Assembly: GCA_964394645.1 (NCBI GenBank) | Contig: CAYMYC010000001.1 | Location: 359,705 to 423,704, forward strand | Direction: 5' to 3' | From: an uncultured Gammaproteobacteria bacterium | Lineage (GTDB): Bacteria; Patescibacteriota; Microgenomatia; Levybacterales; GWA1-39-11 | DNA: 64,000 nt | Shown: in pieces, positions 9,359-51,508 of the stretch | Layout of the letters: each line of letters opens with the position of its first letter | Numbering within the stretch: the stretch's first letter is position 1 | Notes under the pieces: model-generated | Told to the model about the DNA's origin: nothing | The model's database searches: none | The model's input: only the letters and a program-made list of their open reading frames with translations | Position numbers and translations under genes: made by a program

Positions 9359-9363
9359 TTATA

Positions 9364-20196: not shown

Positions 20197-20811
20197 ATGA
20201 AAATTAAAACTATCTTTGAAATCATTAAAAGAAAAGGTCTAATTGACACATTTTGTAGTTTACTAGGAATGTTTACGCTCAGAATTTCCTCAAGCACTAA
20301 AATAGAAGTATTGAGACTGAGAGGGTATGGTATTAGCCGTTCGGCAATACTATATGGTCAAAATGTTTTTTTTCAAAGCGAAAAAAACTCAGTAGTCATA
20401 AAAGATCACACGCGTTTGGGGCATGGTGTGCGTATTAAATCAGGGTTTCAGGGAAAAATTATTATTGGGAAAAGTGTTTTAATAGACGACAATTCATATG
20501 TCAGCGCACATGAGCGTATAGTGATTGGGGATGAGAGTATGATTGCTGCAAATGTATATATTGTAGATTTTAACCATTTATATCCTCTACAAAAATCAAA
20601 AAAACTAATCGGTAAAAAAAGTGGGTATGAAGCGGAGGCGATTGTTATTGGGAGGTATGTATGGATAGGCGCAAATGCTGTGATACTTAAGGGTGTGACA
20701 ATAGGTGATAATGCAGTTGTTGGAGCTAGTAGTGTAGTTACAAAAGATGTTCCAGAAAATACTGTGGTTGCGGGTTGTCCAGCTAAAGTAATTAAACGTA
20801 TAAATTTATGA
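20197..20811 (+). CDS. hexapeptide-repeat (LbH) sugar O-acetyltransferase (Mac/WcaF/WbbJ-like)
   Basis: Imperfect [LIV]-G-x-x-x-x repeats. C-terminal 'VVAGCPAKVIKR'. Confidence 0.7.
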   Translation: MKIKTIFEIIKRKGLIDTFCSLLGMFTLRISSSTKIEVLRLRGYGISRSAILYGQNVFFQSEKNSVVIKDHTRLGHGVRIKSGFQGKIIIGKSVLIDDNSYVSAHERIVIGDESMIAANVYIVDFNHLYPLQKSKKLIGKKSGYEAEAIVIGRYVWIGANAVILKGVTIGDNAVVGASSVVTKDVPENTVVAGCPAKVIKRINL

Positions 20812-25016: not shown

Positions 25017-25072
25017 GGAATTGTATTATATTTGTATTTTGTTATAATTGCTACTATGCCTACTTATCTAAC

Positions 25073-35426: not shown

Positions 35427-35966
35427 ATGAAAATTGGAATTGATATATCTCAGTTAGCATATAAAGATACCGGAGTTGCCAACTATCTTGAAAATTTAGT
35501 AGCAGAGTTAATTGAAAAAGATAGGAAGAATGAATATATTCTGTTTTTCTCATCATTACGTGGCAATATGAATCACACAAAGCTTACTATTCTAGGTAAT
35601 AATTCAAAGGTTACAATAAGAAAGTTTAAATTTCCGCTCTTTTTACTCGATATCATTTGGAATAGAATGCATATTTTCCCTATAGAATGGTTTGTAGGGA
35701 ATATAGATTTGTATATAACATCTGATTGGATTGAGCCACCTGTAAGAAAAGCTAAAAAAGCTACAATCTTGTATGACCTTGTCGTATCTCTCTATCCAAA
35801 TGAAACAGCAAAAAAAATAATTCAAACACAGAAAAGAAAATTATCTTGGGTAAAAAATGAGAGCAGTATAATTTTCTGTATCTCAAGCTCAACTGCAAAA
35901 GATGCTAAAAGAATTCTTGGAATTGATGAAAACAAATTTCGGGTGATATACCCGGGAGTGTCATAA
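35427..35966 (+). CDS. GT4 N-terminal-domain-only protein (truncated glycosyltransferase, possible pseudogene)
   Basis: 'MKIGIDISQLAYKDTGVANYLENL' is a GT4 N-domain start shared with ORFs 7216, 36018 and 45425. The ORF ends at 179 aa, before any EX7E catalytic domain. Confidence 0.4.
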   Translation: MKIGIDISQLAYKDTGVANYLENLVAELIEKDRKNEYILFFSSLRGNMNHTKLTILGNNSKVTIRKFKFPLFLLDIIWNRMHIFPIEWFVGNIDLYITSDWIEPPVRKAKKATILYDLVVSLYPNETAKKIIQTQKRKLSWVKNESSIIFCISSSTAKDAKRILGIDENKFRVIYPGVS

Positions 35967-36017
35967 TAAAAACTGTAACAAGTATAATTACCGTTATTTA
36001 ATCAAGATGAAATTTAT

Positions 36018-37145
36018 ATGAAAATAGGAATAAATGGATACGAAGCAGTGGTTCCTCGTTTTGGTTACACAAGTGAAGGATTTCCTAACCGTGTGGGGAG
36101 CGCTGAGGTTTGCTTCCAGCTTTTATTAGAATTATCAAAACTTGATAAAAAAAATTCATACATTATTTATCTCCCATCCCTTCCAACGAAGGATATGCCT
36201 GAAGAGTCAGCAACCTGGGAATATAGAGTGGTGCCCGCTAAAAGATTTTGGACCCTTATTGCACTTCCTATGGCGCTACGTCGGGATAGACCCGATATAT
36301 TTTTCTCTCCAACGCATTATTCACCTCTTTTTATGCCCATAAAGACGGTACTTACCATACTAGACGTATCTTATAAATATTTCCCTGAAATGTTTACAAA
36401 GAAAGATTTATATAAACTGTCCTGGTGGGGGAAATATTCTGTTAAAAAGTCAAAGAAAATTATAACAATAAGTGAAAGCAGCAAAGATGATATAATAATA
36501 ACATACGGTATAAGCCCGAAAAATGTTAATGTTATCCATCTGGGAATAAAAAATTTACCAACAGTCAGCATGACAAAAGAAGAATTATTTAAAAAATATT
36601 CAGTTAATACGCCTTACATATTATTTGTGGGAACGCTACAGCCAAGAAAAAATGTTAAACGTTTGATACAGGCAATTTCATTGCTAAAAAATAAAGAAGT
36701 TAAGCTTGTTATTATTGGTAAAAAGGGATGGATGTATGAGGAAATTCTTTCAGCTCCTGAAAAATTTGATATCTTAAATCGTGTCACTTTTTTGCATGAA
36801 GTTGTAAATGCTGAGCTTCCTTTTTTCTATAAACACGCGTCACTATTTGTTCTCCCTAGTTTATACGAGGGTTTTGGTTTGCCAATTCTTGAAGCGATGA
36901 AATATAAATGTCCGGTAGTGACAAGTAATGTAAGTAGCTTGCCGGAAGCAGGAGGAGACGCAGCTCTTTATGTTAATCCGGAAGATGTTTCAGAGATTGC
37001 AGAAAAAATTGATGAAGTACTTGGAAACACAAAATTAAGGGATAGAATGATAAAATTAGGAGACGCTCAAGTTAAAAAATTTTCGTGGGATAAAGCAGCT
37101 AGAGAAGTAATAACGGTTTTTGAGGAAACCTTTGGAAAAGAATAG
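36018..37145 (+). CDS. family 4 glycosyltransferase
   Basis: 'PSLYEGFGLPILEAMKYKCPVVTSNVSSLPE'. Confidence 0.75.
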   Translation: MKIGINGYEAVVPRFGYTSEGFPNRVGSAEVCFQLLLELSKLDKKNSYIIYLPSLPTKDMPEESATWEYRVVPAKRFWTLIALPMALRRDRPDIFFSPTHYSPLFMPIKTVLTILDVSYKYFPEMFTKKDLYKLSWWGKYSVKKSKKIITISESSKDDIIITYGISPKNVNVIHLGIKNLPTVSMTKEELFKKYSVNTPYILFVGTLQPRKNVKRLIQAISLLKNKEVKLVIIGKKGWMYEEILSAPEKFDILNRVTFLHEVVNAELPFFYKHASLFVLPSLYEGFGLPILEAMKYKCPVVTSNVSSLPEAGGDAALYVNPEDVSEIAEKIDEVLGNTKLRDRMIKLGDAQVKKFSWDKAAREVITVFEETFGKE

Positions 37146-37192
37146 GATCTTTGTATTTGAAAACGATTGAAATAAAATCGTATTCATGATTT

Positions 37193-37744
37193 ATGAAAAA
37201 AATAGTTAGAAGACTTAAAGCAATAACACTGGAAGCAGACAATATGATATTAAGGTGGGTAGGGCATGTTCCTTCGCACCATTTTAGAAGATTTTGTTAC
37301 AGACTGGAAGGTTTTAAAATCGGACATGGATCAGCAATTCATATGGGGGCAGTATTTTATAATATAAAAAATATAAAAGTTGGTTCGGATACAATTATTG
37401 GAGAAAATGCTGTTTTGGATGGAAGAGATACTCTTAGTATAGGTAGTCATGTAGACATAGCAAGTGAAGTGATGATTTATAATGCTCAGCATGATTTATC
37501 AGATCCATCATTTAAAGCGGTAAATGCTCCTGTTGTAATAGAAGACTATGTTTTTATTGGTCCAAGAGCTATAATTCTTCCTGGTGTAAGTGTGGGCAAG
37601 GGGGCAGTAATTGGTGCGGGAGCAATAGTAACAAAAGATGTTCCAGAGTTTATGATTGTGGGAGGAGTTCCTGCAAAAGTTATAGGAGAGCGAAAATTGA
37701 AAAATCCTTCTTATAGACTTGGTCGCGCTGCTTGGTTTCGATAA
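37193..37744 (+). CDS. hexapeptide-repeat (LbH) O-acetyltransferase
   Basis: '[44 protein letters not shown]'. Confidence 0.7.
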
Positions 37745-37750
37745 ATCTAC

Positions 37751-38611
37751 ATGAATGTTTCAATAATTATTTTAACGTTTAATTCATCAAAATACATAGA
37801 TGAACTTCTTGAGAGCATCGTACACAAATATAAAGGAGAGATCAAAAGTAAAGAGTTGGAAATAATTGTTGCTGATAATTCATCCAAAGATGATACGGTA
37901 AAGAAGGCTAAAACGCATAAAGAAGTAAGAGTAATTAACACTGGAGGAAATTTTGGGTATGCAAGAGGTAATAATATAGCTTCTAATTTAGCATTAGGTG
38001 ATGTTTTGATATTCTTAAATCCTGATACTAAATATTTATCAGGTGACATGTTGAAATTGGCGGATGAATTGAAAAATGAGGAAATTGGTGTTGTGGGCGG
38101 AGAAATAATAAATTTCGAAGGAGAAAGGGAGCTTTCTTGCGGAAAATTTTACAATGCAGTAAATACTTTCCTTCTATCAATGGGTCTTGAAGAGTTATGC
38201 GGCGTGCGTTTCTCGCCTAAAAGAAGACGGAAGGTACAATTTGTTAGTGGGGCTTTTTTTGCTGTAAGAAAGAAACTATTCCATGAGCTAAAAGGATTTG
38301 ATGAGCATTATTTTATGTACATTGAAGATAGTGATTTTTGTTTCAGGGCAAAACTTGCGGGGTATTCAACATTTTTTTCACCTGTTGCTGCAATAAAACA
38401 TGTCGGACAAGGAAGCTCAAATAGGTCGTTTGCTGTCGTAAATATTTATAAAGGGTTGCTATTTTTTAATAAAAAGCATATGGGTAAATTTTCTTATAAA
38501 TTTGTTAAAGCCCTCTTAAAAGTAAAGGCAGCTGTACTTGTAAACTATGGAAAAGTAAGCAATAATCAATATTTAGTCACGACTTATGAAGAAGCTATTA
38601 AAGCGACTTAG
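37751..38611 (+). CDS. family 2 glycosyltransferase
   Basis: 'VSIIILTFNSSKYI', 'IIVADNSSKDDT', 'YIEDSDF'. Confidence 0.7.
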   Translation: MNVSIIILTFNSSKYIDELLESIVHKYKGEIKSKELEIIVADNSSKDDTVKKAKTHKEVRVINTGGNFGYARGNNIASNLALGDVLIFLNPDTKYLSGDMLKLADELKNEEIGVVGGEIINFEGERELSCGKFYNAVNTFLLSMGLEELCGVRFSPKRRRKVQFVSGAFFAVRKKLFHELKGFDEHYFMYIEDSDFCFRAKLAGYSTFFSPVAAIKHVGQGSSNRSFAVVNIYKGLLFFNKKHMGKFSYKFVKALLKVKAAVLVNYGKVSNNQYLVTTYEEAIKAT

Positions 38612-41600
38612 CAATAGAAATAACTTAACACAAAGTAGGTTACTGTTTTTTTTAGTTGCAGTTTCCATTTTGTTTATACCACTTTATCCGAAGCTTCCAG
38701 CAATCGGGGTAAATAATACGTGGGTATACATAAGGTTTGAAGATTTTCTAATTGCATTTACAACTTTTGTCTTTTTGATACAGTTGTTGAGGAGACGGGT
38801 TCATGTAAGTCGGCCCCTTGGGATTCCAATAGTTGCATACTGGATTGCGGGACTTCTATCTCTTTTAATTAGTATAGTATTTATCGCACCTCATCTTGCA
38901 AATTTTTTTCCTCATGTAGCAATCCTTTCTTATTTGAGAAGAATTGAGTATATGGTGCTTTTCTTTATAGGATACGCAGTTATTAAGGAAGAAAAGGATT
39001 TGAGACGCCTATTTTGGGTATTGGCACTGGCTGCAGGAGTAGCTTTTGTATACGGAATAGGTCAAAGGTATTATATAAACGTATGGGCAGCATTTCCAGA
39101 TTTTTTTCAAAAATACTCATTCTGTTTCCCTTCATTTCAGACTACAAATGAAGAGTTTGCAAAAGGTATTCCGCTTTGTTTGCCATCAGACGGGAGAATA
39201 ACTTCACTCTTTGGAGGGCATTATGATCTTTCAGCATATCTTGTGTTGGTAATTCCAATTATTTTTTCAGTTGCGTTTGCAATGAGGAAAAAAATATATC
39301 AAGCTGTTTTGTTACTTTTAGGCACAGGGCTTATATACCTACTTATACTAACTGCTTCTAGGATATCATTCGGTGCATATATTGTAGGGCTTATTTTTGC
39401 ACTCATATTTATCAGAAAAAAAATGTTTATTGTTCCCATACTTATTATTTCTTTATTTTTTCTTGTAACATCAAGTTCAAGCGTATTGCAGCGTTTTACG
39501 CAAACCTTTAGATTTACAAACCTCGTAATAAACAGTCAGGGTCAGGTAGTCGGTGAAGCAGTGAATAAGTTGCCGGAGCAGTTAAAGAAAAAAATTTCAC
39601 ATGAGCCAATTATTGTGGAGGCTCCACCGCCAACTCAAGAGTTACCTACTGGCTCAAGCTACATTGCTCTTCCCGGGAAAACTGAGTCTACGTCTTCAGC
39701 AGTGCTGAAATCATCACCAAAATTATCAAAAGAGGAAAAAAGCAAATATAAATTTGGTGCTGTTGAGATATCAAACGTTCTGGGTAATTTCTTGATTCAG
39801 AGAGCGCTTGTATATGATATTTCTTTCACAACTAGATTTCAGGGAGAATGGCCGAATACTTGGAATGCTTTTATGAGAAACCCAGTGTTTGGGAGTGGAT
39901 ACGCAACTATCACCTTATCCTCAGATAATAGTTTTCTAAGAGCTTTAGGAGAAGTTGGAGTACTGGGCTTTATTACGTTCTTCTCATTTTTTATTATTTG
40001 GTACATTTATATTAAGAATAACTATAAGGAAGCAGACATATTCACAAGAAATTTTGCTCTTGGTCTATCAGCCGGAGTAATTGGTCTTTTTTTGAATGCT
40101 GTGCTGATTGACGTTTTTGAAGCTTCAAAAGTTGCAGAGTCTATGTGGTTGCTTTTAGGTATAGGAGCAGGAGGAATTGCATTACACGCTAAAAATAAAT
40201 TTTCATATGTTCATGAGTTAAAAAATATACTTTCCTCGGGTCTATTTTTGATGATCTATTTATTGATCTTGTTTTTTATATTCTTGGGACCATCGTTTAA
40301 TAATTTTTTTGTTGGAGACGACTTTACCTGGTTAAGGTGGGCTGCACAATCGGACAATACAACTTTAGTTAAAAACTTCTACGATGCTCAGGGATTTTTC
40401 TTGAGGCCAATTGATAAATTATTAATCTTTATGCAATATACACTTTTTAATTTAAAGCCCTTACCCCATCACCTATTCAATCTTTTTTATAATTTTGGGG
40501 TTACTGTAGCAGTATATTTATTACTTTTTAGGGTATTCAAAAAGAGAAGCATTGCGTTTTTAGGAGCATTTATCTTTTCATTTATACCTTCACACTCACA
40601 AAACTTGTTTTGGATGTCTACAATCTCTACTACTGTCTCCAGTCTCTTTGTCTTGCTTGGGCTCCTCTCTTATTTAACAGCTCGTAGATCGAAAAAAATA
40701 GTCTATTATATTTGCGCGTTTGTTCTTTTTCTGTTATCCGTATTCTCATACGAGAATGCAATTATTTTTATTGGTCTTATGGTTGTTTTTGATTTTTTTA
40801 TTGCGGAGAATAATGATAAGCACCATAAGAAGCAAATATTTTTGCCATATCTTTTTGCCTTAGTAATAGTAGGCTTTTACTTACTGGTTCGAATGAACGC
40901 ACATGCAGCTGGTTTTTCCGGAGATTATAATTACAATCTTTTGAAGTTAATTCCTAACTCAATTGGTAATTATCTAGGATATATTGCCTTATTTTTTGGA
41001 AGTGAGTCGACTCTATCCTCATATACATTTTTAAGAAACTTTATGAAGCAGTATGTTCTGGTACTCAGCTTTATTGGATTTATGTTTATAGCATTTGTCG
41101 CAGGTTTTGTTATAGAGCATAAAGAGAAAATATCTATTTCAAGAGGTAAGAAAATATTTATCTTCGGCTTTATTTTTTCAGTTATCGCGCTGCTTCCATA
41201 TTTGCCCTTGGGTAACATTACTCTACGGTATCTTTACCTTCCGTCTTTTGGTTTTGTAGTGATGATACTAGCGGTTTTTGACTTTCTGTTTTCAAAAATC
41301 ACTACAAGGAAATGGTTTATGGTAGCCTATGGTTTAGTAATTATAGTACTCGGGATAACTTTCTATAGTGGTTTAACACGTGCAGAGCAGTATTGGGATC
41401 AAGCTTCAAAAATTACTTATGACACGCTAGTTCGATTCAGACTAGATTTTGATCTTAAAAATAATACGAATCTTTATTTCTATAATGTTCCTATTAAAAA
41501 TGGTGAGGCGTATATATTTCCTGTGGGTCTTCCAGATGCAATCTATTTTGTTAATACTGATAAATCTGTAAAGGTGTATCAAGTTAAGGATAGAAAGACA

Positions 41601-41708
41601 GCTGAAATCTTGAGAGACGCCACTTCTGCAAAAGTACTGCATACAGGGATATTTACTTTTGACAAAAATAAGATGTTAGATCTTATAGAGTACTCGAGTA
41701 AAGAATAA
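38586..41708 (+). CDS. fusion protein: Wzy/O-antigen-ligase-like (Wzy_C) N-terminal domain plus GT-C-like C-terminal membrane domain
   Basis: 1040 aa. The N-terminal half is multi-TM with a periplasmic loop carrying 'RNPVFGSGYATI...DNSFLRALGEVGVLG', a Wzy_C/WaaL-like motif, around nt 39880..39960. The C-terminal half is about 12 more TM helices with a 'VGDDFTWLRW' acidic loop motif. Confidence 0.5.
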   Translation: MKKLLKRLSNRNNLTQSRLLFFLVAVSILFIPLYPKLPAIGVNNTWVYIRFEDFLIAFTTFVFLIQLLRRRVHVSRPLGIPIVAYWIAGLLSLLISIVFIAPHLANFFPHVAILSYLRRIEYMVLFFIGYAVIKEEKDLRRLFWVLALAAGVAFVYGIGQRYYINVWAAFPDFFQKYSFCFPSFQTTNEEFAKGIPLCLPSDGRITSLFGGHYDLSAYLVLVIPIIFSVAFAMRKKIYQAVLLLLGTGLIYLLILTASRISFGAYIVGLIFALIFIRKKMFIVPILIISLFFLVTSSSSVLQRFTQTFRFTNLVINSQGQVVGEAVNKLPEQLKKKISHEPIIVEAPPPTQELPTGSSYIALPGKTESTSSAVLKSSPKLSKEEKSKYKFGAVEISNVLGNFLIQRALVYDISFTTRFQGEWPNTWNAFMRNPVFGSGYATITLSSDNSFLRALGEVGVLGFITFFSFFIIWYIYIKNNYKEADIFTRNFALGLSAGVIGLFLNAVLIDVFEASKVAESMWLLLGIGAGGIALHAKNKFSYVHELKNILSSGLFLMIYLLILFFIFLGPSFNNFFVGDDFTWLRWAAQSDNTTLVKNFYDAQGFFLRPIDKLLIFMQYTLFNLKPLPHHLFNLFYNFGVTVAVYLLLFRVFKKRSIAFLGAFIFSFIPSHSQNLFWMSTISTTVSSLFVLLGLLSYLTARRSKKIVYYICAFVLFLLSVFSYENAIIFIGLMVVFDFFIAENNDKHHKKQIFLPYLFALVIVGFYLLVRMNAHAAGFSGDYNYNLLKLIPNSIGNYLGYIALFFGSESTLSSYTFLRNFMKQYVLVLSFIGFMFIAFVAGFVIEHKEKISISRGKKIFIFGFIFSVIALLPYLPLGNITLRYLYLPSFGFVVMILAVFDFLFSKITTRKWFMVAYGLVIIVLGITFYSGLTRAEQYWDQASKITYDTLVRFRLDFDLKNNTNLYFYNVPIKNGEAYIFPVGLPDAIYFVNTDKSVKVYQVKDRKTAEILRDATSAKVLHTGIFTFDKNKMLDLIEYSSKE

Positions 41709-41709
41709 T

Positions 41710-43164
41710 ATGATAAAAAAAATAGAACTTGCAATTTTTGTATTTATACTTATTCTGGCATTTGTGTTAAGGTTGTACCGTTTTGATAATCCCATTGGTG
41801 ACTGGCATGCGTTCCGGCAAGCAGATACCTCAGCCGTTGCGAAAGTCTATGTTTCAAATGGAATAAACCTTTTATCACCAAAATATTTTGACATATCAAA
41901 TATTCAATCTGGGAAAGATAACCCTGAGGGGTATAGATTTGTTGAATTTCCCGTAATGAGTGCTATTCAGGCAAGTACATTCATGTATATAGGGGTATTG
42001 AGTCTTGAGGAGTGGGGAAGACTGATTACTATCTTGTCGTCCTTGGGAAGTCTAACCTTTATATATTTACTTGTTCGTAGGCACCTTGATCCTGTTTCTG
42101 GCTTGTTTTCAGCCTTTTTTTATGCCATTCTTCCTTATTCAATTTTTTATGGACGTGTGATACTTCCAGATCCCGCTTGCGCTTGTGCTATTCTTGGCGG
42201 GATATATTTTTTTGATGTTGCAATGTCATATAAAAAACATAAGATGCTTTTGCTGAATATATTTTTCTGGCTTGCTCTTGTTTTTACAGCTATATCATTT
42301 TTATTAAAGCCTTTTGCGTTATTTTTTACCTTACCTATGTTTATTCTTGCATGGAAGAGGTACGGTTTTAGGGTTTTTCTTCGATGGGAGTTGTATATCT
42401 TTGCTTTTTTATCAATTCTTCCGCTTGTGCTTTGGAGGATTTGGATAACTCAACATCCCGAAGGGATACCAGTATCAAACTGGTTATTTAATGAAGGTGG
42501 CATACGATTTACCGGTGCGTTTTTTCACTGGATATTAGCAGAAAGAGTAGCAAAGCTTATACTTGGGTACTTCGGGATTGTTCTTTTATTGTTAGGTCTA
42601 TTTAAAAGAAATGAAAAAAACTATTTGTTTTTCTTGTCATTCTTAGTTTCATCAATTATCTATGTAATTGTAATCGCACGAGGAAATGTTCAGCATGACT
42701 ATTATCAAATATTAATATTGCCTACAATATGTATTTTCCTAGGAAGGGGAGCGACCTATTTACTGTCCATTCCCGTGAAGACAGGTGAGAATATTGGGAT
42801 AAACACATTCATTTCATTATTTACGCTCACAGTAATAATTATCCTTTCTTTTATGCTCTCCTGGTATCATGTTCGTGATTATTTTAATATTAATAACAGG
42901 GGGCTAATTAATGCTGGAATTGTTGCTGATAAGCTGCTGCCGAAAAATGCAAAAGTAATAGCGGCAAACGATGGAGACACTTCATTTTTGTATTATATAA
43001 ATAGAAAAGGGTGGCCTGCATATGAAAAAAGCGTAGAGGGCTTGCAGGAGTTAGGTGCAACTCACATAGTCGTTCCAAGCCCAACTGAAAATGACATTAA
43101 AGGTTTAGGAACGATTTACAAGCGTTTGTATACGTCGAAAGATGTATTGATTCTTAAATTATGA
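41710..43164 (+). CDS. polytopic membrane protein, GT-C-fold-like candidate
   Basis: 484 aa, about 11 TM helices. Loop 'WHAFRQADTSAVAKVY'. C-terminal soluble domain. Confidence 0.4.
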   Translation: MIKKIELAIFVFILILAFVLRLYRFDNPIGDWHAFRQADTSAVAKVYVSNGINLLSPKYFDISNIQSGKDNPEGYRFVEFPVMSAIQASTFMYIGVLSLEEWGRLITILSSLGSLTFIYLLVRRHLDPVSGLFSAFFYAILPYSIFYGRVILPDPACACAILGGIYFFDVAMSYKKHKMLLLNIFFWLALVFTAISFLLKPFALFFTLPMFILAWKRYGFRVFLRWELYIFAFLSILPLVLWRIWITQHPEGIPVSNWLFNEGGIRFTGAFFHWILAERVAKLILGYFGIVLLLLGLFKRNEKNYLFFLSFLVSSIIYVIVIARGNVQHDYYQILILPTICIFLGRGATYLLSIPVKTGENIGINTFISLFTLTVIIILSFMLSWYHVRDYFNINNRGLINAGIVADKLLPKNAKVIAANDGDTSFLYYINRKGWPAYEKSVEGLQELGATHIVVPSPTENDIKGLGTIYKRLYTSKDVLILKL

Positions 43165-44333
43165 AGCTATTAATCCTAACATATGATTTTCCTTATCCTA
43201 TTACAAGTGGGGGTAAGAGTAGGATATACAACCTTATAAAGTTTCTAAAGAAAAAAGATACAGAAATTTATTTATTATCTTTTATTCGCGATACATACAA
43301 AAAAAAATATGACGATTCAATTTTAAATATAGGAGTATCAGAAATATTCCACTTTAAAAGAAAAAAGGTAATATCCCCATCTATAATTATGAAGACTTCG
43401 TTTTCATCAGGATCTGTGTTTAAAGCTTTATATAAGGATCAAAGAGTTGAAAAAAAAATAATGCAGATAATTTGCGAAAAAGATATAGATGTTATTCTAT
43501 TTGAGTCTTTTTATACGTCATTCTTTATATCTGAAGAAATAAAAAGAATGAACGTAAAACAGATTTTTGGCACAGAAAATATTGAGCATATTCTCTATCA
43601 GGATTTTGCACTACAGAAATCAAGAATTGCAAAAGGCTTGTACATGTCTCAAGTTAAAAAAATCAAAAAAGAGGAAGAGATTGCTTATAATAAGTCAGAC
43701 TTAGTTCTTGCTATTACGGAAGAAGAAAAAAACAATATTTCTAAAAAGACAAAGACAAATATAGAGGTTATTCCAAATGGAGTTGATAGTTCTTCTCTAT
43801 CTTTCAAATCTCATTTTTCTGGCGGAAAGAAACTTTTATTCGTAGGAAATTTTTCTTATTTTCCAAATATTGATGCAATGGATTTCTTCTATAAAAATGT
43901 TTTTTTAAATATTCCTGACGCAACACTTACCGTTGTAGGAAGAAGTCAAAATAAATTACCATTTCTAATCTCTGACAGTAGAATTCGTAATATAGAATAT
44001 ATTGAGGATATTGCAAGCGTGTATTATGATTCTGATATATTCGTTTTTCCAGTTCGTTTTGGGGGTGGAACTAATTTCAAAGTACTAGAGGCAGCGAGCT
44101 GTGGCACCCCTATTATTGCAATTCCTAACCGTGTAAAGGGTTTAGGTTTTATTGCCGATACTCACTATGTTGAAGCATCATCTCCTGTAGATTTTATGAG
44201 GGGTATACGGAGATTGTCGGAGGAGAGAGAATTACAGAGGAAAATAACAAAAAACGCACGTACTTTAATAGAGAAGGATTATGACTGGAAAAAAATAGGA
44301 GAAAAACTGGGGGAGATTTTCCATAGTATATAA
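43161..44333 (+). CDS. family 4-like glycosyltransferase
   Basis: 'FPVRFGGGTNFKVLEAASCGTPIIAIPN'. Confidence 0.65.
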   Translation: MKLLILTYDFPYPITSGGKSRIYNLIKFLKKKDTEIYLLSFIRDTYKKKYDDSILNIGVSEIFHFKRKKVISPSIIMKTSFSSGSVFKALYKDQRVEKKIMQIICEKDIDVILFESFYTSFFISEEIKRMNVKQIFGTENIEHILYQDFALQKSRIAKGLYMSQVKKIKKEEEIAYNKSDLVLAITEEEKNNISKKTKTNIEVIPNGVDSSSLSFKSHFSGGKKLLFVGNFSYFPNIDAMDFFYKNVFLNIPDATLTVVGRSQNKLPFLISDSRIRNIEYIEDIASVYYDSDIFVFPVRFGGGTNFKVLEAASCGTPIIAIPNRVKGLGFIADTHYVEASSPVDFMRGIRRLSEERELQRKITKNARTLIEKDYDWKKIGEKLGEIFHSI

Positions 44334-44361
44334 AGAAGGCAATAGCCTCTATGAAGACACA

Positions 44362-45273
44362 ATGAAAACAATAGATTTATCAATTATTACTGTTGCGTTT
44401 AATTCCCAGAACGAGATTAAGAAATGGGTAGAAGTAATCGATAGAACTGTCAGCAAATATTCATTTGAGATGATTATATCCGATAACAGTCCGAATGAAG
44501 CAACTGAAAAAGTAGTGGTAGAGCTTCAGAAAAAGCACCCTGAGTTAATTTACATACATAATCATGATAATCTTGGTTTTTCTCGAGCGAATAACGTAGC
44601 AATAAGAAAAGCAAAAGGAAAATACCTGCTATTCTTGAACCCGGATATGGAAGTAGGTGAGGGTGCAATTGATGGGGCTTTATCATTCCTTTTGGCACAT
44701 AGCGATGCAGGTTCTGTAACTCCTGCTGTTTATCTTCCGAACGGTATGCTTGATGACTCATGTCATCGCGGATTTCCTACTCCATGGAATTCTTTCACTT
44801 ATTTTTCAGGATTGTCCAGAAAATTTCCAAAAATTAAACTTCTTGCAGGGTATAACATGACGTATCTGGATTTCACAAAAGAACATACGATAGATTCGCT
44901 GGCTGGTTCTTTTCTTATTATTTCAAGAGATTTAGGTGAAAAATTAAAATGGTGGGATGATGATTATTTTTTTTATGGAGAAGATATAGATTTTTGTTAC
45001 AGAATAAATAAGGCAGGGTATAAGATTTATTATCTTCCACAGTATAAGGCGCTTCACTATAAAGGAATGTCATCGGGGATTAAGGATATTTCTAGGCAAG
45101 AGTCAAAAGCTACAAATGAAACTAAGATATGGGCTACTAACCAAAGATTTAAAGCAATGGAAATTTTTTATAAAAAACACTATGAAAGAAGATATCCATG
45201 GGCACTAAATAAATTAGTATTTATTGCGATAAAAATAAAACACAAGATGGCTCTTAAAAATTTAAACGGTTAA
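44362..45273 (+). CDS. family 2 glycosyltransferase
   Basis: 'LSIITVAFNSQNEI', 'MIISDNSPNEAT', 'YGEDIDFCYR'. Confidence 0.7.
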   Translation: MKTIDLSIITVAFNSQNEIKKWVEVIDRTVSKYSFEMIISDNSPNEATEKVVVELQKKHPELIYIHNHDNLGFSRANNVAIRKAKGKYLLFLNPDMEVGEGAIDGALSFLLAHSDAGSVTPAVYLPNGMLDDSCHRGFPTPWNSFTYFSGLSRKFPKIKLLAGYNMTYLDFTKEHTIDSLAGSFLIISRDLGEKLKWWDDDYFFYGEDIDFCYRINKAGYKIYYLPQYKALHYKGMSSGIKDISRQESKATNETKIWATNQRFKAMEIFYKKHYERRYPWALNKLVFIAIKIKHKMALKNLNG

Positions 45274-45424
45274 ATGCTAACGGGTACTCAGTTGGTAGTA
45301 ATAGTTATTATATATTTTAAGGGTTTGTAACAGCAACTTCGATTAATAATATCTTCATGGTAAATTTTTAATCGCCATTACTTAGTTTGTTGATTAATTC
45401 AATCAAATCAAGGATAATGGTGGA

Positions 45425-46579
45425 ATGATAGATGAGGGAATAATTCAAAAAATAGGTATCGATATAAGGTTATGGAATGAGACTGGAATCGGACGATATA
45501 TACGAAATTTAATTTTTGAGTTAGCCAAAATTGAACAAAAAAACAAATACGTTTTATTCGCAAGACCAGATGATATACCAGAAATTAACAGATTAAGTAA
45601 CATAAGTGAGGCAAAGGAAAAATTTATTATTATTCCGACAAGCATTAAATGGCACTCAATACAGGAGCAAGTAGAATTTCCTAGGATTTTGATGAAATAT
45701 AAGTTAGATTTAATGCATTTCCCATATTTTTCTGTACCAGTTTTTTATAGAAGATCATTTGTTGTAACTGTTCATGATTTGATTATTAATCATTTCCCAA
45801 CTGGACGTGCAACCACACTCCCGTTGCCTCTATATAGAATAAAACGTGTCGGATATGAACTTATTTTAAAGTCTGCGGTTTCAGGCGCTAAAAAAATTAT
45901 TGTACCATCAGAAGCAACGAGGCGTGAATTAGTTGAACACTACCAGATAAAGGAAGATAAGATTATTGTAACCCAGGAAGGAATTGATGAAAACATAAAT
46001 TCTTTCACTCCTGTAGTATTTAAAGATAAACACCCATATTTTCTTTATGTGGGGAATGTATATCCTCACAAAAATATTGAAGTAATGCTTGAAGCATTTA
46101 AGATATTTTCAATACAGCATCCAGGTGTCGTAATCAAATTAGTCGGAAAACAGGACTATTTTTATAAACGATTAAGAATGTATGTAGAAAAACACAAGAT
46201 ATCTCACGTTGAATTTATGGGGTATGTAGATGATTCTAAGTTGTCCAATCTTTATTCAAATGCTGTAGCTACAGTTATTCCTTCTCTTATGGAGGGTTTC
46301 GGTTTGACTGCGTTGGAGGCAATGAAAATGAAATCTTTAGTAGTTGTTTCAAAAATTCCTTCACTTCAGGAAGTATGCGGTAAGAATGCAATATATTTTG
46401 ACCCGAATGATACTTTAAGTATTGTGGATGCCATGAATATTTCACTAAATCTTAAAAGTGAAGATAAGAAGAAGATGTTAAGCAGTGCAATGGAGCATTC
46501 AGAAACATTTACCTGGGAAAAAATGGCTAAGCAAACGATTGCAGTATACGATTCCTGCCTCAAAAAGCATAAGATATAA
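45425..46579 (+). CDS. family 4 glycosyltransferase
   Basis: 'PSLMEGFGLTALEAMKMKSLVVVS'. Confidence 0.75.
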   Translation: MIDEGIIQKIGIDIRLWNETGIGRYIRNLIFELAKIEQKNKYVLFARPDDIPEINRLSNISEAKEKFIIIPTSIKWHSIQEQVEFPRILMKYKLDLMHFPYFSVPVFYRRSFVVTVHDLIINHFPTGRATTLPLPLYRIKRVGYELILKSAVSGAKKIIVPSEATRRELVEHYQIKEDKIIVTQEGIDENINSFTPVVFKDKHPYFLYVGNVYPHKNIEVMLEAFKIFSIQHPGVVIKLVGKQDYFYKRLRMYVEKHKISHVEFMGYVDDSKLSNLYSNAVATVIPSLMEGFGLTALEAMKMKSLVVVSKIPSLQEVCGKNAIYFDPNDTLSIVDAMNISLNLKSEDKKKMLSSAMEHSETFTWEKMAKQTIAVYDSCLKKHKI

Positions 46580-46596
46580 GAAAAATTTAAGATCAA

Positions 46597-46612
46597 AACC
46601 TAAGCTTAGGTT
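46597..46612. promoter_or_regulatory. perfect 16-bp palindrome AACCTAAGCTTAGGTT (operator or weak terminator)
   Basis: Exact inverted repeat 18 nt after the stop of GT4 45425..46579 and 54 nt before the start of GT4 46666. Abuts a TTGAGA hexamer. Confidence 0.3.
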
Positions 46613-46665
46613 GAGATATTGGTTATTCCAATAGTATGTGATCTCTATTATACTCGAACGATAGT

Positions 46666-47766
46666 ATGAAAGTAGCTTTAGTATACGATCGGATAAATAA
46701 ATGGGGAGGGGCTGAACGGTTATTGCTTCTCTTGCATGAGATTTTCCCTAATGCTCCAGTATTCACTTCTGTATATGATCCCCATGCTGCACCCTGGGCT
46801 AAAAATCTTGATATTAGAACTTCATTTTTAGAGCACATTCCGTATGCACGAAGACATCACGAATTTTTTGCCCTTTTTATGCCTTTGGCTTTCGAGTCAT
46901 TTCAGTTTGATGAATTTGATTTAGTAATTTCTCTTAGTTCAGAGGCGGCAAAAGGGATAATTACACCTCCCCACACAAAACATATATGTATATGCTTAAC
47001 ACCAACAAGGTATTTATGGAGCGAATACGATTTATATTTTGCAAACGAACCATTACGAACTCTGTCTTTACCTTTAGTTTGGTATTTAAGGAGATGGGAT
47101 TTAGTAGCTTCATCAAGACCGGACTTTTATATTGCAATTTCACAAACGGTCAGTGATAGGATAAAAAAATATTATAATAAAAATTCAAGTGTTATTTATC
47201 CACCCTTGCTTCTTGATAGCAATAAAGAAGAAGCGCAGATGACTAGTCGTAATTATTTTCTTGTCGTATCTCGTTTGTCTCGTTTTACACCTCAGAAGCG
47301 GGTTGAACTTGCCATAAAAGCTGCAAATAAGCTAAAGTTACCGTTAGTAGTTGTTGGAGATGGAGATGTAGCTCATTTTAAACATATTGCAGGCAAAACC
47401 GTATCTATTGTAGGTAAGGCGACTGATTATGAGTTGGCTAATTATTATAAAAATTGTATAGCTCTTATATTTCCGGGTGTGGAGGATTTTGGTTTAGTGA
47501 TGGTTGAAGCTCAAAGTTTTGGTAGACCTGTGATAGCATTTAAGCAAGGTGGAGCTTTGGAGATTATTCAGGAAGGTAAGACTGGAGACTTTTTTGATAA
47601 ACCTACTATTTCTTCTCTTGTCAATACGTTGAAATTGTTTGACAAGAGAAGATATAATAGTAAAGATTGTGTTATAAATGCAGCTAGATTTAATAAAGAC
47701 ACATTTATAAATCAAATACATATGTCAATTCAAAAATTAAAAGTAATGGAGGATGAAGAAAATTGA
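46666..47766 (+). CDS. family 4 glycosyltransferase
   Basis: 'FPGVEDFGLVMVEAQSFGRPVIAFKQGGALEII'. Confidence 0.75.
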   Translation: MKVALVYDRINKWGGAERLLLLLHEIFPNAPVFTSVYDPHAAPWAKNLDIRTSFLEHIPYARRHHEFFALFMPLAFESFQFDEFDLVISLSSEAAKGIITPPHTKHICICLTPTRYLWSEYDLYFANEPLRTLSLPLVWYLRRWDLVASSRPDFYIAISQTVSDRIKKYYNKNSSVIYPPLLLDSNKEEAQMTSRNYFLVVSRLSRFTPQKRVELAIKAANKLKLPLVVVGDGDVAHFKHIAGKTVSIVGKATDYELANYYKNCIALIFPGVEDFGLVMVEAQSFGRPVIAFKQGGALEIIQEGKTGDFFDKPTISSLVNTLKLFDKRRYNSKDCVINAARFNKDTFINQIHMSIQKLKVMEDEEN

Positions 47767-48845
47767 AAGCAGTAATATTTGCTGGTGGAGTAGGAACGAG
47801 ATTGTGGCCATTATCACGTAAGAATAGTCCAAAACAATTTGAGAAAATTATAGGTGAGAATTCCACACTTCAAGAGACTGTGCAAAGATTACTTCCCGAG
47901 CTATCCCATAAAGATATTTTTATTGCGACAGGAAAACGATACGAAGAAATAATTAAGGGACAATTGTCAGATATACCTCATGAAAACTTTATATTTGAGC
48001 CTGAGATGAGAGATGTTGGTCCTGCGATAGGATTAGTTGCTGCAATGTTGGCTGAAAAATTTCCCGATGAACCGATTGCGATATTGTGGAGTGATCATAT
48101 GGTAAAGAATGTGGAAGCCTTTAAGAGCGCACTTTCTTTTGCCGAACAAGCAATAAAAGATGATGAATCAAAATTTGTTTTTATAGCACAAAAACCACGA
48201 TTTCCAAACCAGAATATGGGATGGATTGAGGTGGGTGATGAGTTAAGCGAAGAAAAAAATATTAAAGCTTTTTTATTTAAAGGCTTTAAGTATAGACCAA
48301 CACTTGAAGAAGCATCCCAATTTTTTAAAAGTGAAAAATTTTATTGGAATCTCGGATATTTTGTGACAACCCCTTCATATCTCCTATCACTTTTTAAAGA
48401 CTTTGCTCCAGACGTATACTCAACACTAATTACCATAAGAGAAGCAAAAAGAAATTCAAATTTTGAAACCGTATTGCAAGAGAACTATAGTAAATTAGAA
48501 AAGATTAGTTTTGACGATCTAATACTGATGAAGATACCACCTGCGGGTTTGGAGGTAGTTGCTTGCGATTTGGGTTGGAGTGATATAGGAGCTTGGGAGT
48601 CGTTGAAAGAGGCATTAGCAGAGCATATAGATGAGAATGTTACAAAAGGAAACGTTATATTAAAAGATTCGCGTGATTCTTTAGTTTATAATTATACAAA
48701 TCAAATGGTCGTAGGAATTGATTTAGATGAGCTACTGGTTGTAAATACGCAAGATGTAGTATTAATATGTCCCAAAAGATCAGTTCCTAAGATAAAAAAA
48801 CTTGTCGAGAGTTTGTCCGATACAGAACACGAGCACCTAACTTAA
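47763..48845 (+). CDS. mannose-1-phosphate guanylyltransferase-like sugar nucleotidyltransferase
   Basis: 'MKAVIFAGGVGTRLWPLSRKNSPKQF' nucleotidyltransferase signature. 360 aa, ManC-like length. Confidence 0.65.
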   Translation: MKAVIFAGGVGTRLWPLSRKNSPKQFEKIIGENSTLQETVQRLLPELSHKDIFIATGKRYEEIIKGQLSDIPHENFIFEPEMRDVGPAIGLVAAMLAEKFPDEPIAILWSDHMVKNVEAFKSALSFAEQAIKDDESKFVFIAQKPRFPNQNMGWIEVGDELSEEKNIKAFLFKGFKYRPTLEEASQFFKSEKFYWNLGYFVTTPSYLLSLFKDFAPDVYSTLITIREAKRNSNFETVLQENYSKLEKISFDDLILMKIPPAGLEVVACDLGWSDIGAWESLKEALAEHIDENVTKGNVILKDSRDSLVYNYTNQMVVGIDLDELLVVNTQDVVLICPKRSVPKIKKLVESLSDTEHEHLT

Positions 48846-48850
48846 AACTT

Positions 48851-49486
48851 ATGTACTATTTTGAAAAAAGAATTCTTGATATAGTCTCATCGCTTCTTTT
48901 GCTGTTAGTTTTTTCCCCAATCATTATACTTACGGCAATAGCTATAAAAATTGATTCGAGAGGTCCGATTTTTGCTGATACTCCTATGCGCGTAGGAAGA
49001 CGCGGTAAACTTTTTAGAATGTACAAATTCAGATCTATGGTTCAAAATGCCTATGAAATTCTTTCAACTGATCCGAAATATAAAGAATTATATGATGAAT
49101 ATAAGAAAAGTGGGTTTAAATTAAGAAATGATCCAAGAGTGACTAGTGTAGGGCACTTTATCAGAAAATATTCCCTTGATGAGATACCGCAGTTTATAAA
49201 CGTATTAAAAGGAGATATGAGCATGGTTGGACCACGGGCGTACTATGCTGACGAACTAAATTATCAACAAAAAAAATATCCGCTCACACAGGATGCTGTA
49301 AAAGTTGTGCTTTCAGTAAAACCTGGCATAACAGGACTTTGGCAAGTTTCAGGACGGAGTCAGATTAATTTTGATAAACGTATTCAGATGGATGCAAAAT
49401 ACGCAAGGCGACACTCCATATTTTATGATGTCTATATAATGGCTAAAACACCCAAGGCGATGCTTTCGGCAAGAGGTGCAATGTGA
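48851..49486 (+). CDS. polyprenyl-phosphate sugar-1-phosphate transferase (PglC/WecP-like small 'bacterial sugar transferase')
   Basis: '[22 protein letters not shown]' re-entrant helix, '[19 protein letters not shown]', '[21 protein letters not shown]'. PF02397-type. 211 aa like PglC. Confidence 0.75.
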
Positions 49487-49555
49487 TAGGAAAAAAGCAA
49501 AACTTGATTTTAAATTCAAAACTGTGCTTTAATATACTATTAGACTTTTACTTGA

Positions 49556-51508
49556 ATGGAAGAATCAGGATTTACTAAAATAGATGTGAGTAATGCTCCG
49601 GTAAGGAAGTCTACCTTTGTAAGCTCACAACCACAAATGAAAAAAAAACGATTTGGCTTTTTTAAAACACGTAAGCAAAAAATTATTGGAATTATAGTTT
49701 TGGCAATAATTATTCTGGTTGTGTATATAGGAGTAAATACTTTTATATTTCTTAATGATGCCAATAAGACTTATGCGCAGGCAAAAATTGCATATGATGC
49801 AATAAAGCAACAAAATGTTGTAGTAGCAAAAGAAGAGTTGGTAAAAACTCAAAAGCAGATTTCTGTTTTGCAGCACGACTTATTACCAATTGCATTTTTG
49901 GGTTATATTCCATTTTTCGGTGGGTACTATAATGATGTTAAAAATTTAGTAGATGCATCTAGTCATGGGATAAATGCAGGTATAACTGCTACAGACTCAC
50001 TTATTCCCTACGCTGATGTTTTGGGATTAAAAGGGGATAAGAGTTTTGCCCAGGGAAGTGCAGAGGATAGAATTCGGCTTGCTATAAAAACGATGGATAA
50101 GGTTGTGCCTAAGATTGACACGATAGAAAAAGATTTGATTGCAGCAAAGAAGGCAACGGATAAAGTTAACCCAAACAGATATCCCTCAATTGGTAAATTG
50201 AAAAAGGTACACGACAGCTTGCAGGATTTAAAAAATATAGTTGACGGATCTGTTATAGCAGTTGAGCAAGGAAAGCCTTTGATTAAGTTATTGCCTGATT
50301 TATTAGGTGCAAACGGTGAGAAAAAATATTTGGTATTATTCCAAAATGATAAAGAGTTAAGACCTACAGGTGGATTTATGACCTTTTATGCTGTTTTTAG
50401 GCTTGAGCAGGGTGTAATACATGTTGATAAGGCAGGAGACATATACACATTAGATGATTCTTTACCGTCCCACCAGGCTGCTCCACCAATTATTGCGAAA
50501 TATCTTCCCAAGGTAGACACATTTAATATACGGGATAGTAATCTTTCTCCTGATTTTGTTGAATCCATGAAGACATTTAACAAAATGTATAACACCTCAA
50601 GAGATAAGGCTGATATTGATGGAATTATTGCAATTGATACGCATTTTCTGGTTTCGATTTTAGATGTTTTGGGAGATGTACAAGCTGGGGGTCTTACCTT
50701 TAATTCAAAAAATGATCCTCGATGTGATTGTCCTCAGGCGGTTTTTGTTCTTGAGGATAATACCACAAAGCCTGTTAACTACATTAAAACGAATAGAAAA
50801 GGGTTATTGGCGGAATTGCTATTTGCAATTATCCAAAAGGCTCTGTCTTCATCCCCGAAGGAATATTGGGGGAATTTGATGCAGACTGCAATTAATGATG
50901 CGCAAGAAAAACACGTTATGTTCTATCTATTTAATCCTGAAGCACAAAAAGGCATAGATGCGTTAGGTTGGTCCGGGGCAATTAAGCCATTTGATGGAGA
51001 TTACCTTCACATTAATGACTCCAACTTTGGCGGCGCAAAATCAAATTTATTTGTGGAACAAAACGTTCGGGTTGACTTCAAGATTGACGGGAATGGAGAA
51101 GTTGCAAAAACATTAACTATCTCCTATAAAAATCCTAAACCCCACTCTGATTGTAACTTAGAGCATGGTGAATTATGTTTGAACGCGACCTTAAGAGATT
51201 TTCAAAGAGTGTACGTTCCAAAAGGGTCTACGCTCGTTTCATCCAAGGGTTCTGAAGTGAAAACGACTGTTAAGGAAGATTTAGGAAAAACAGACTTTGA
51301 GTCGTTCTTAACCGTTAATCCTTTAGGCTCGGCTAAGATAATATACGAATATAAGCTTCCGTTTAAAGTTGAAGGCAAAACTTTACCTTTTCTTATACAG
51401 AAACAGCCAGGGACAGACGCTGTTCCTTATGAAATCTATGTAAACGGAAACAAGACAGATGCATTCAATTTGGTAACTGATCGTGAGATTCAAGTTCCTG
51501 TCCGATGA
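49556..51508 (+). CDS. DUF4012-like membrane-anchored extracytoplasmic protein
   Basis: N-terminal TM. Core 'KYLVLFQNDKELRPTGGFMTFYAVF' resembles the DUF4012 signature ('NNAELRxTGG'). Confidence 0.5.
   Translation: MEESGFTKIDVSNAPVRKSTFVSSQPQMKKKRFGFFKTRKQKIIGIIVLAIIILVVYIGVNTFIFLNDANKTYAQAKIAYDAIKQQNVVVAKEELVKTQKQISVLQHDLLPIAFLGYIPFFGGYYNDVKNLVDASSHGINAGITATDSLIPYADVLGLKGDKSFAQGSAEDRIRLAIKTMDKVVPKIDTIEKDLIAAKKATDKVNPNRYPSIGKLKKVHDSLQDLKNIVDGSVIAVEQGKPLIKLLPDLLGANGEKKYLVLFQNDKELRPTGGFMTFYAVFRLEQGVIHVDKAGDIYTLDDSLPSHQAAPPIIAKYLPKVDTFNIRDSNLSPDFVESMKTFNKMYNTSRDKADIDGIIAIDTHFLVSILDVLGDVQAGGLTFNSKNDPRCDCPQAVFVLEDNTTKPVNYIKTNRKGLLAELLFAIIQKALSSSPKEYWGNLMQTAINDAQEKHVMFYLFNPEAQKGIDALGWSGAIKPFDGDYLHINDSNFGGAKSNLFVEQNVRVDFKIDGNGEVAKTLTISYKNPKPHSDCNLEHGELCLNATLRDFQRVYVPKGSTLVSSKGSEVKTTVKEDLGKTDFESFLTVNPLGSAKIIYEYKLPFKVEGKTLPFLIQKQPGTDAVPYEIYVNGNKTDAFNLVTDREIQVPVR

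Follow-up and report, generated by a model that had tools for sequence, protein, structure and literature searches.

A gene joining a WaaL/Wzy-like and an ArnT/PMT-like membrane module in a conserved glycan operon of Microgenomatia

Does a membrane protein in which two glycosyltransferases (GT) appear to be joined end to end exist as one genuine chain, to which enzymes are its halves related, and what could they do together? These questions are raised by a gene located at 38586..41708 in a 64,000 nucleotide stretch of contig CAYMYC010000001.1 (the window), which belongs to an uncultivated Levybacteria bacterium (Patescibacteriota, Microgenomatia). The gene encodes a bimodular polytopic membrane protein of 1040 amino acids (aa) with approximately 23 transmembrane (TM) helices. 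A WaaL/Wzy/SEDS-like module (N module) is followed in it by an ArnT/PMT-like module (C module). Features given below as ranges of window positions lie on the + strand.

The gene, its relatives and its split forms

The open reading frame (ORF) is a single frame from ATG to stop. Re-translation returned the two motifs from which the initial annotation had proposed a polymerase or ligase fused to a second membrane glycosyltransferase of the GT-C fold class: 'RNPVFGSGYATI...DNSFLRALGEVGVLG' is located at aa 431-461 (running as 'RNPVFGSGYATI...SSDNSFLRALGEVGVLG') and 'VGDDFTWLRW' at aa 576-585, the latter extending to 'FVGDDFTWLRW' at aa 575-585. The ATG at 38586 overlaps the stop codon (38609-38611) of the upstream GT2 gene by 26 nt, and the same overlap is present in three further loci (L001, L003, L084).

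A search of 5.8 billion proteins identified more than 120 full-length homologs with lengths of 1014-1051 aa and identities of 42-100%. Those that carry a name come from Candidatus Levybacteria or the 'Patescibacteria group', and the window protein shares its cluster with a Levybacteria record. When one genome per GTDB species was scanned, at least 572 genomes were found to encode a relative; the best 80 of these matches all span query residues 1 to approximately 1030. Of the 83 loci read, which were assembled independently, 82 carry the gene as a single frame of 980-1130 codons without a stop, and the linker region is collinear and conserved in the homolog alignment. The fusion is therefore genuine and kept in hundreds of genomes: an assembly or sequencing artefact in which a frameshift merged two adjacent genes, the error with which the initial annotation had reckoned, is excluded by the more than 120 full-length protein clusters, the at least 572 species genomes and the 82 uninterrupted loci, even if another clade does encode the halves as separate adjacent genes.

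According to their titles, the records of the family come mostly from Levy-, Gottesman-, Woese- and Shapirobacteria, together with 'Patescibacteria group' records, and public databases name the members 'hypothetical protein' or 'O-antigen ligase family protein'. About half of the metagenome-assembled genome contigs that encode the family (L004-L083; third party annotation (TPA) assemblies) are titled 'uncultured Gammaproteobacteria', others Lysobacterales, Acidiferrales or Pseudomonadales; such Gammaproteobacteria-type titles are probably placeholders or wrong taxonomic labels.

Split versions of the gene, which the initial annotation had thought of, are found in a sister clade of approximately 16 protein clusters. 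There (L086/L087, L090 and a contig of the Joint Genome Institute (JGI)) an N gene of 532-540 aa lies directly upstream of a C-module gene of 464-480 aa, with a 12-nt gap in L086 and a 4-nt overlap in L090, and the gene order is that of the window: GT2, N, C, PMT_2, GT4. The N gene of L086 shares 36% identity with the N half (aa 8-527) and has kept the TTRF and D-S motifs. In the split homologs, the N gene ends and the C gene begins at the place of the inter-module linker of the fusion (aa 533-551, 'HAKNKFSYVHELKNILSSG', 40182..40238), which is short, basic and predicted to be cytoplasmic.

A third arrangement is seen in L084 (GCA_964406795.1). Here a paralogous fusion of 1061 aa (3984-7169 of that locus) has a degenerate C half ('FFTLRDF', with the first Asp lost and no RP), and an intact stand-alone C half, 48% identical to that of the window, is encoded at 8001-9512 in the canonical position after the GT2. 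The pair looks like a natural experiment in module replacement, and it suggests that the cell requires C-module activity, which can be supplied in trans. Since the modules are separable and are nevertheless kept together in the fused, the split and the L084 state, the classical argument from gene fusion points to a functional partnership between them.

Two glycosyltransferase folds on one chain

The AlphaFold2 model built from 55 homologs has a mean pLDDT (predicted local distance difference test score) of 78 and a pTM (predicted template modelling score) of 0.79. Confidence is high for the membrane core of either half and low for the outer loops aa 178-211 and 300-450. In a chain of two modules, a pTM of this size suggests a defined packing of one against the other. 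The closest solved structure is the O-antigen ligase WaaL, the compared set being one without a solved O-antigen Wzy structure. WaaL is followed by Pmt4 (16.4), ArnT (16.3, 386/541 residues), ALG12, PIG-M, FtsW (13.6), AglB (13.2) and RodA (12.7), after which come STT3B, Pmt1/2, AftD and PglB; Foldseek gave a probability of 1.0 for STT3, ArnT, WaaL, Pmt4 and PglB. Allotted to the N or C half by the identity of the target and not by query coordinates, these matches agree, as does the model, with the two halves proposed initially. They support the N half as a GT-C_B module of the WaaL/Wzy/SEDS type and the C half as a GT-C_A module of the ArnT/PMT/oligosaccharyltransferase type.

Topology was predicted from the model helices, hydropathy and the positive-inside rule, and it places every invariant charged residue of both modules on the outer face. 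Residue conservation was counted in an alignment of 82 sequences from different species with 31-46% identity. Mean identity in this set is 44% for the N half and 31% for the faster-evolving C half.

The N module (aa 1-532, 38586..40181) has the WaaL-type fold, including the extended outer loop towards its C-terminal end. It is predicted to comprise 12 TM helices and to have both termini in the cytoplasm, in keeping with the multi-TM half described before. P35, K36, R50, D53, R118, E121, Y122, R204, D214, R259, R303, D411, R417, D447, R452, D509 and K515 are invariant across the 82 sequences. The external loop aa 177-212 (39114..39221; 'FCFPSFQTTNEEFAKGIPLCLP...R204...GHYD214'), which has low model confidence, presents NEEFAK and GHYD as family signatures and the residues R204 and D214 (both 82/82). 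Cys180 (39123-39125) and Cys198 (39177-39179) in the 'FCFPSFQ...PLCLP' stretch of this loop occur in 22 of the 82 orthologs each, and the equal count suggests a lineage-specific disulfide within an otherwise invariant outer loop.

Two further arginines are candidates for binding undecaprenyl diphosphate (Und-PP). The first, Arg259 ('TASRISF', 39360..39362), lies in the short external turn between TM7 and TM8 and the second, Arg417 ('TTRFQ', 39834..39836), in a large external loop of approximately 150 aa (aa 296-448, 39471..39929); both are found in 82 of 82 sequences. The large loop has a pLDDT below 50 over most of its length and contains the patches YDISFTTRFQ.EWP and the invariant residues R303, D411 and R417. 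It is partly of low complexity, and its Ser/Lys-rich part (aa 366-389) is the stretch that the initial annotation had mistaken for the linker between the domains. The Wzy_C-type motif 'SSDNSFLRALGEVGVLG' (aa 445-461, 39918..39968) is predicted to be catalytic, with the invariant Asp447 at the place of the catalytic His of WaaL; D447 and R452 are present in 82/82 sequences and E456 in 81/82.

The proposed relation of the N half to Wzy_C (PF04932) holds for the family. The window protein itself scores 18.1-19.2 bits, below the cut-off of 31.7, in a match that covers aa 411-466 and the C-terminal half of the model only. Among 47 orthologs, 38 match at E<0.01 (best 3e-8), and many homologs have a precomputed PF04932 match. 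The NCBIfam scan of the protein returned nothing meaningful, and a search of PDB sequences with the family profile yielded none at E<=10.

Since hhalign against the single E. coli WaaL sequence was uninformative, we built a WaaL family profile from E. coli K-12 WaaL. Its invariants include R215, R265, R288, H336, H338, N339, G349 and D389; the E. coli motif reads 'HLHNEIIEA.SLKGI.G', of which H338-N339 are invariant. Profile-profile comparison aligned aa 18-309 with WaaL 24-272 (E 0.0016, probability 16%) and paired R259 with R215. A local alignment of aa 395-540, which is non-significant alone (E 0.19), pairs R417 with R288, D447-N448 with H338-N339 and D509 with D389 and lays 'LGE.G.LG' over 'SLKG..G', so that all motifs are in register. 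In this weak alignment the counterpart of the WaaL 'H-N' motif is 'S-D447-N448', with Asp instead of the catalytic His in 82 of 82 sequences.

Clan GT-C1 comprises SEDS proteins together with O-antigen ligases and inverting Wzy polymerases. In these proteins Und-PP is bound by a pair of arginines, and the residue that activates the acceptor varies: ligases use His, SEDS proteins Asp, and polymerases either Asp or Glu (PMC10920833, Meitil et al.). Compared with this description, and as far as the weak alignment places the residues, the N module may share the traits of GT125-GT129, namely Asp at the acceptor-activating position, conserved arginines and an extended outer loop towards the C-terminal end. 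Because Asp447 is invariant where WaaL has His, the N module looks more like a polymerase-type member of the clan than like a canonical WaaL. The window protein differs from the WaaL ligase (CAZy GT121; PDB 7TPG/7TPJ from Cupriavidus metallidurans; E. coli WaaL) also in its two large inserted outer loops (aa 177-212 and 296-448), in the fused second GT-C module and in the sub-threshold Wzy_C match. At the sequence level it is assigned to none of the Wzy polymerases GT125-GT129 or the SEDS family GT119 (FtsW, RodA). Its likeness to SEDS proteins is much weaker than to WaaL; neither sequence membership nor the closest structural similarity points to FtsW/RodA.

The membrane part of the C module (aa 552-932, 40239..41381) has an ArnT/PMT-like GT-C_A fold. 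It is multi-TM as described initially, with 11 helices according to the model and the positive-inside rule and not the approximately 12 counted before; given the strongly basic loop 845-852, helix 785-822 is best taken as an interfacial element on the outer side. The 'FVGDDFTWLRW' segment (Asp578-Asp579, 40308..40340) is located in the first extracytoplasmic loop, just after TM1 of the module, and is indeed an acidic motif typical of GT-C_A enzymes. D579 is present in 82/82 and D578 in 80/82 sequences, and both are invariant among fused, split, remote and TPR-fused relatives. A second family signature, Arg607-Pro608 ('FFLRP', 40404..40409; P608 in 82/82, R607 in 80/82), lies in external loop 1. 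The third, Glu723 ('SYEN', 40752..40754), is found at the external turn between TM5 and TM6 of the module; position 723 is Glu in 72, Asp in 9 and Gln in 1 of the 82 sequences, and Glu is invariant in the alignment with distant relatives. The C-terminal soluble domain (aa 933-1040, 41382..41705) is predicted to be extracytoplasmic and consists of a long helix and a small alpha/beta domain (strands 961-966, 996-999, 1019-1025 and 1031-1038; pLDDT 75-90) with W937, P969 and G981 invariant. A soluble tail had been noticed before, at a length of about 120 aa; it comprises approximately 90-108 aa (from aa 933 or 955 to 1040).

The C module is not a member of a named family (PMT_2, PMT, GtrII or ArnT). 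GtrII matches the window protein with 18.9-21.2 bits (cut-off 30) over aa 604-878, and matches of the C half across the 47 orthologs are sporadic and fall on families of the GT-C clan (PTPS_related 4, PMT_2 2, GtrII 1). A PMT_2 relation, as considered initially, was thus found in 2 of the 47 orthologs only, and among the relatives only the distant stand-alone protein P0228 passes the PMT_2 cut-off; the assignment to GT-C itself is supported by the structure model. The fold suggests a polyprenyl-phosphate sugar as donor, with structure matches that do not separate monophosphate from diphosphate donors.

The C module defines a large GT-C family (approximately 10,800 cluster representatives) with a DD...RP...E signature and without a Pfam model. 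When 1.84 billion cluster representatives were searched exhaustively with HMMER (query aa 536-1040), 10,849 relatives were identified at E<=1e-3, 995 of them at E<=1e-10 and 66 at E<=1e-30. Complete stand-alone relatives have 457-520 aa; the initial Met and a basic N terminus lead into a single TM helix, after which come 'F.[AS]DDF.WL' and 'FFYRP'. More distant relatives from Brocadiaceae, Thermodesulfovibrionales and others (P0416-P0438) have approximately 640 aa and C-terminal TPR repeats. D578, D579, R607, P608, E723, P871 and W937 are invariant in the fusion and in its stand-alone and TPR-fused relatives, and an active enzyme family rather than a scaffold is therefore expected. Several apparent stand-alone C halves of approximately 530-770 aa (e.g., P0147) were recognised as contig-edge fragments of fusions.

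The C half showed no BLASTP similarity to the GT-C genes nearby (41710 and 32071) and is thus not a recent tandem paralog of either. A distant stand-alone paralog of the C module is encoded in the window at 24989-26749 (586 aa, polytopic, no Pfam match; hidden Markov model E 1.3e-15). Where the fusion reads 'FFVGDDF', this paralog reads 'YFQQDEW', and its 'EPRYLYFSS' is conserved.

Proposed function and rival explanations

We propose, with somewhat better than even confidence, that the protein is a bifunctional glycan-assembly enzyme that acts extracytoplasmically in a bacterium presumably without an outer membrane, its two modules being coupled on the same glycan. The phosphoglycosyl transferase and the GT4 and GT2 enzymes of the operon would build an oligosaccharide on Und-PP at the inner membrane face. 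After this has been flipped outward, the N module would bind the Und-PP-glycan, with Arg259 and Arg417 holding the diphosphate, and would move it en bloc to an acceptor hydroxyl that Asp447 may activate as a base. Wzy-like polymerisation of repeat units is the most likely form of this reaction, because the ligase His is Asp here and such a cell presumably has no lipid A-core; the glycan could alternatively be joined to an acceptor other than lipopolysaccharide (LPS). The C module would use its DD motif to add one sugar to the same glycan as a branch or linkage sugar, presumably from a polyprenyl-monophosphate donor such as undecaprenyl phosphate (Und-P)-mannose or another Und-P-hexose. The fusion, or in the split clade the adjacent and translationally coupled genes, would hold both outer-face steps together.

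In favour of this proposal, the operon contains a Bac_transf gene, four GT4, two GT2, a WcaF-like acetyltransferase and a GDP-mannose pyrophosphorylase-like gene. The bacteria of the Candidate Phyla Radiation (CPR), to which the host belongs, are thought to have no outer membrane (PMC6744442), which makes lipid A-core, the acceptor of WaaL, an unlikely one here. Several observations weigh on the other side. The Pfam matches of the window protein are sub-threshold, and it has neither an NCBIfam nor a PDB sequence match; the placement of R417 and D447 on R288 and H338 of WaaL is non-significant by itself (E 0.19), and the model gives low confidence to the large outer loops, where the acceptor would be bound. 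Furthermore, neither a GtrB-type Und-P-sugar synthase nor a GtrA flippase adjoins the gene, and the sole Wzx-like gene is 28 kb away.

The fused and split pairs can be regarded as a 'Rosetta stone', as they argue that en bloc glycan transfer and the addition of single sugars are physically coupled at the outer face; the same question of coupling arises for the Wzy/Gtr and the lactococcal Wps/Csd systems. Our literature searches yielded no description of a WaaL/Wzy-like protein fused to an ArnT/PMT-like one, nor of this family in CPR bacteria, nor of the C-module family. The domain architecture is new, the folds are known. WadA of Brucella (GT25 + GT121), the only bimodular ligase that surfaced in these searches, likewise has a WaaL-like module fused to a second glycosyltransferase acting on the same product, and this fusion has been taken as evidence of coupled action (PMC10920833; PMC9938171). 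In WadA this second enzyme is GT25, soluble and globular and with a nucleotide sugar as donor, whereas the partner in the window protein is a polytopic outer-face GT-C.

The closest functional analogy is the PSP (polysaccharide pellicle) pathway of Lactococcus lactis with the polymerase WpsI, the GT-C attaching enzyme WpsJ and branch glucosylation by CsdC/CsdD (PMC9574508). It too operates in a single-membrane host and employs several GT-C-fold proteins for polymerising, branching and attaching a lipid-linked oligosaccharide at the outer face. The likeness drawn here is one of function; the components of PSP are all separate, and its acceptor, rhamnan, is not known in CPR bacteria. O-antigen branching of the Gtr type is another analogous, unfused arrangement. 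The GT-C_A enzymes of such systems (ArnT, PMT and the three-component GtrC/GacL/CsdB type) differ from the C family, which has its own DD...RP...E signature, no Pfam or NCBIfam model and a covalent link to a WaaL-like module. The gene in the window also has no GtrB-like GT2 and no GtrA-like flippase adjacent to it; the scan for GtrA, which covered window ORFs of at least 150 aa, found none. The family is large (at least 572 species genomes), lineage-typical and very strongly conserved, and its operon lies directly upstream of the division and cell wall (dcw) cluster. For these reasons the fusion is probably central to the envelope of a major uncultivated, host-dependent bacterial group.

A bolder version of the proposal, which we regard as rather unlikely, would make the protein a single machine that primes and ligates or polymerises and branches. 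Such a machine would take both Und-P-sugar and Und-PP-oligosaccharide through a shared lipid-carrier groove and would, with no need of LCP, WaaL-core or Wzz-type partners, build or anchor the principal surface glycan of Microgenomatia. If true, this would be the first natural covalent coupling of GT-C_B and GT-C_A and a lineage-defining envelope pathway of the CPR.

Among the rival explanations, an unlikely one that nevertheless has several points in its favour is that the C module sets a sugar from Und-P on the final acceptor (wall polymer, lipid anchor or protein) and that the N module then ligates the finished Und-PP-glycan to this sugar. The fusion would take over what WaaL plus core, or LCP proteins, accomplish in other bacteria. 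In support of this, the nearest solved structure is that of a ligase, WadA provides a precedent for a ligase fused to the maker of its acceptor sugar (PMC10920833), and both the fused and the adjacent-gene state are conserved. Moreover, the 64-kb window contains the whole glycan cluster and the start of dcw, yet a scan of its ORFs of at least 150 aa yielded no LCP gene; LCP genes could, however, be located elsewhere in the genome. Against a ligase stands the Asp in place of the ligase His in all 82 sequences, a state reported for polymerases and SEDS proteins. Nor was a separate Wzy candidate identified that would force the N module into a ligase-only role, although one may be among the several unannotated polytopic proteins of the window.

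It is likewise doubtful, at a comparably low level, that the target is protein. The N half would then be an O-oligosaccharyltransferase of the PglL/WsaB type that modifies Ser/Thr/Tyr of S-layer proteins or pilins, and the C half a PMT/TMTC-like O-mannosyltransferase acting on the same proteins. Eukaryotic TMTC O-mannosyltransferases carry C-terminal TPR repeats, as do the distant relatives of the C module, and a GDP-mannose-forming enzyme is conserved in the operon. Known O-oligosaccharyltransferases keep, to our knowledge, the catalytic His, which is Asp here. The Wzy_C family does include O-oligosaccharyltransferases (PMC9239064, PMC12800693), and pili are abundant on CPR cells (PMC6744442). 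JGI names one stand-alone relative 'protein O-mannosyl-transferase', but this name is an automatic annotation. The operon has no conserved candidate for an acceptor protein, and its four GT4, two GT2, acetyltransferase and further GT-C look like the synthesis of a polymer.

Very unlikely, finally, is a protein with a single catalytic module, the other being a degenerate GT-C scaffold, an acceptor platform or a chain-length regulator. Degenerate C halves can persist, because the L084 paralog, which lost the first Asp and RP, keeps one, and the faster evolution of the C half (31% against 44% mean identity) would fit. However, the same locus retains an intact stand-alone C half beside the degenerate one, DD...RP...E is kept in stand-alone and TPR-fused relatives, and the window protein and at least 80 orthologs retain the full outer-face sets of charged residues in both modules.

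The operon and the surrounding window

The gene lies in a conserved operon core (35427..51508), which encodes a half-GT4, a GT4, a WcaF-like acetyltransferase, a GT2, the fusion, a PMT_2 protein, a GT4, a GT2 and two further GT4. These are followed by a mannose-1-phosphate guanylyltransferase-like gene, a small phosphoglycosyl transferase (Bac_transf) and a DUF4012 protein; RecO comes next. This order is kept around homologs that are only 43-44% identical. Directly upstream of the fusion, and at the same place in the other loci examined, is the gene for a soluble GT2 of 286 aa (37751..38611), whose stop overlaps the start of the fusion gene. The gene conserved directly downstream (41710..43164) encodes a PMT_2-type GT-C of 484 aa that scores 29.1 bits, above the cut-off. 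Both flanking GT2s (37751 and 44362) have no TM helices and resemble WbbL, MftF and EpsD. The overlapping upstream GT2 was considered as a GtrB-type Und-P-sugar synthase and rejected, as it has no TM helices and its matches are WbbL/MftF-like.

The DUF4012 protein (49556-51508, 650 aa) ends the operon in the window and in L001 and has a large outer domain. A role as a Wzz-like co-polymerase with two flanking TM helices was dismissed, since only one TM helix, at the N terminus, is predicted. After RecO follow ProRS, MraZ (54435), RsmH (54911), a penicillin-binding protein (56085), a Mur ligase (58472, MurE by position), MurA (59931) and a GlmU-like gene, which represent the start of the dcw cluster.

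The operon is part of a supercluster: positions 1-51508 of the window are approximately 51 kb of glycan-biosynthesis genes in nearly unbroken + strand order. The window has a G+C content of approximately 33%, and its + strand carries nearly all genes. Besides sugar-nucleotide enzymes and a Wzx-like flippase (9364), the supercluster encodes methyltransferases, acetyltransferases and numerous GT4 and GT2. Its GT-C-like membrane proteins number at least five: a YfhO-like protein (5570), PMT_2 (12461), an AftD-like protein (32071), the fusion (38586) and PMT_2 (41710). Four further polytopic proteins with 8 to approximately 15 predicted helices (715-2196, 4471-5586, 8213-9358 and 20808-22997) have no Pfam match; the missing flippase, a polymerase or additional GT-C enzymes could be among them.

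Three small soluble GT2s of 253-277 aa (10595-11356, 2213-2986 and 13782-14615) show weak, generic matches to polyprenyl-phosphate glycosyltransferases (ArnC, AglJ, PgfS, Dol-P-hexose transferase), and one of them adjoins the PMT_2 gene at 12461. These proteins might supply the GT-C enzymes with sugar donors linked to a lipid monophosphate.

The operon core begins with an ORF of 179 aa (35427-35966) that comprises only the N-terminal (Glyco_transf_4) half of a GT4 and precedes a complete GT4 (36018-37145). It is probably a real small gene, because a similar ORF of 174-177 aa is located at the same place in L001, L003 and L084.

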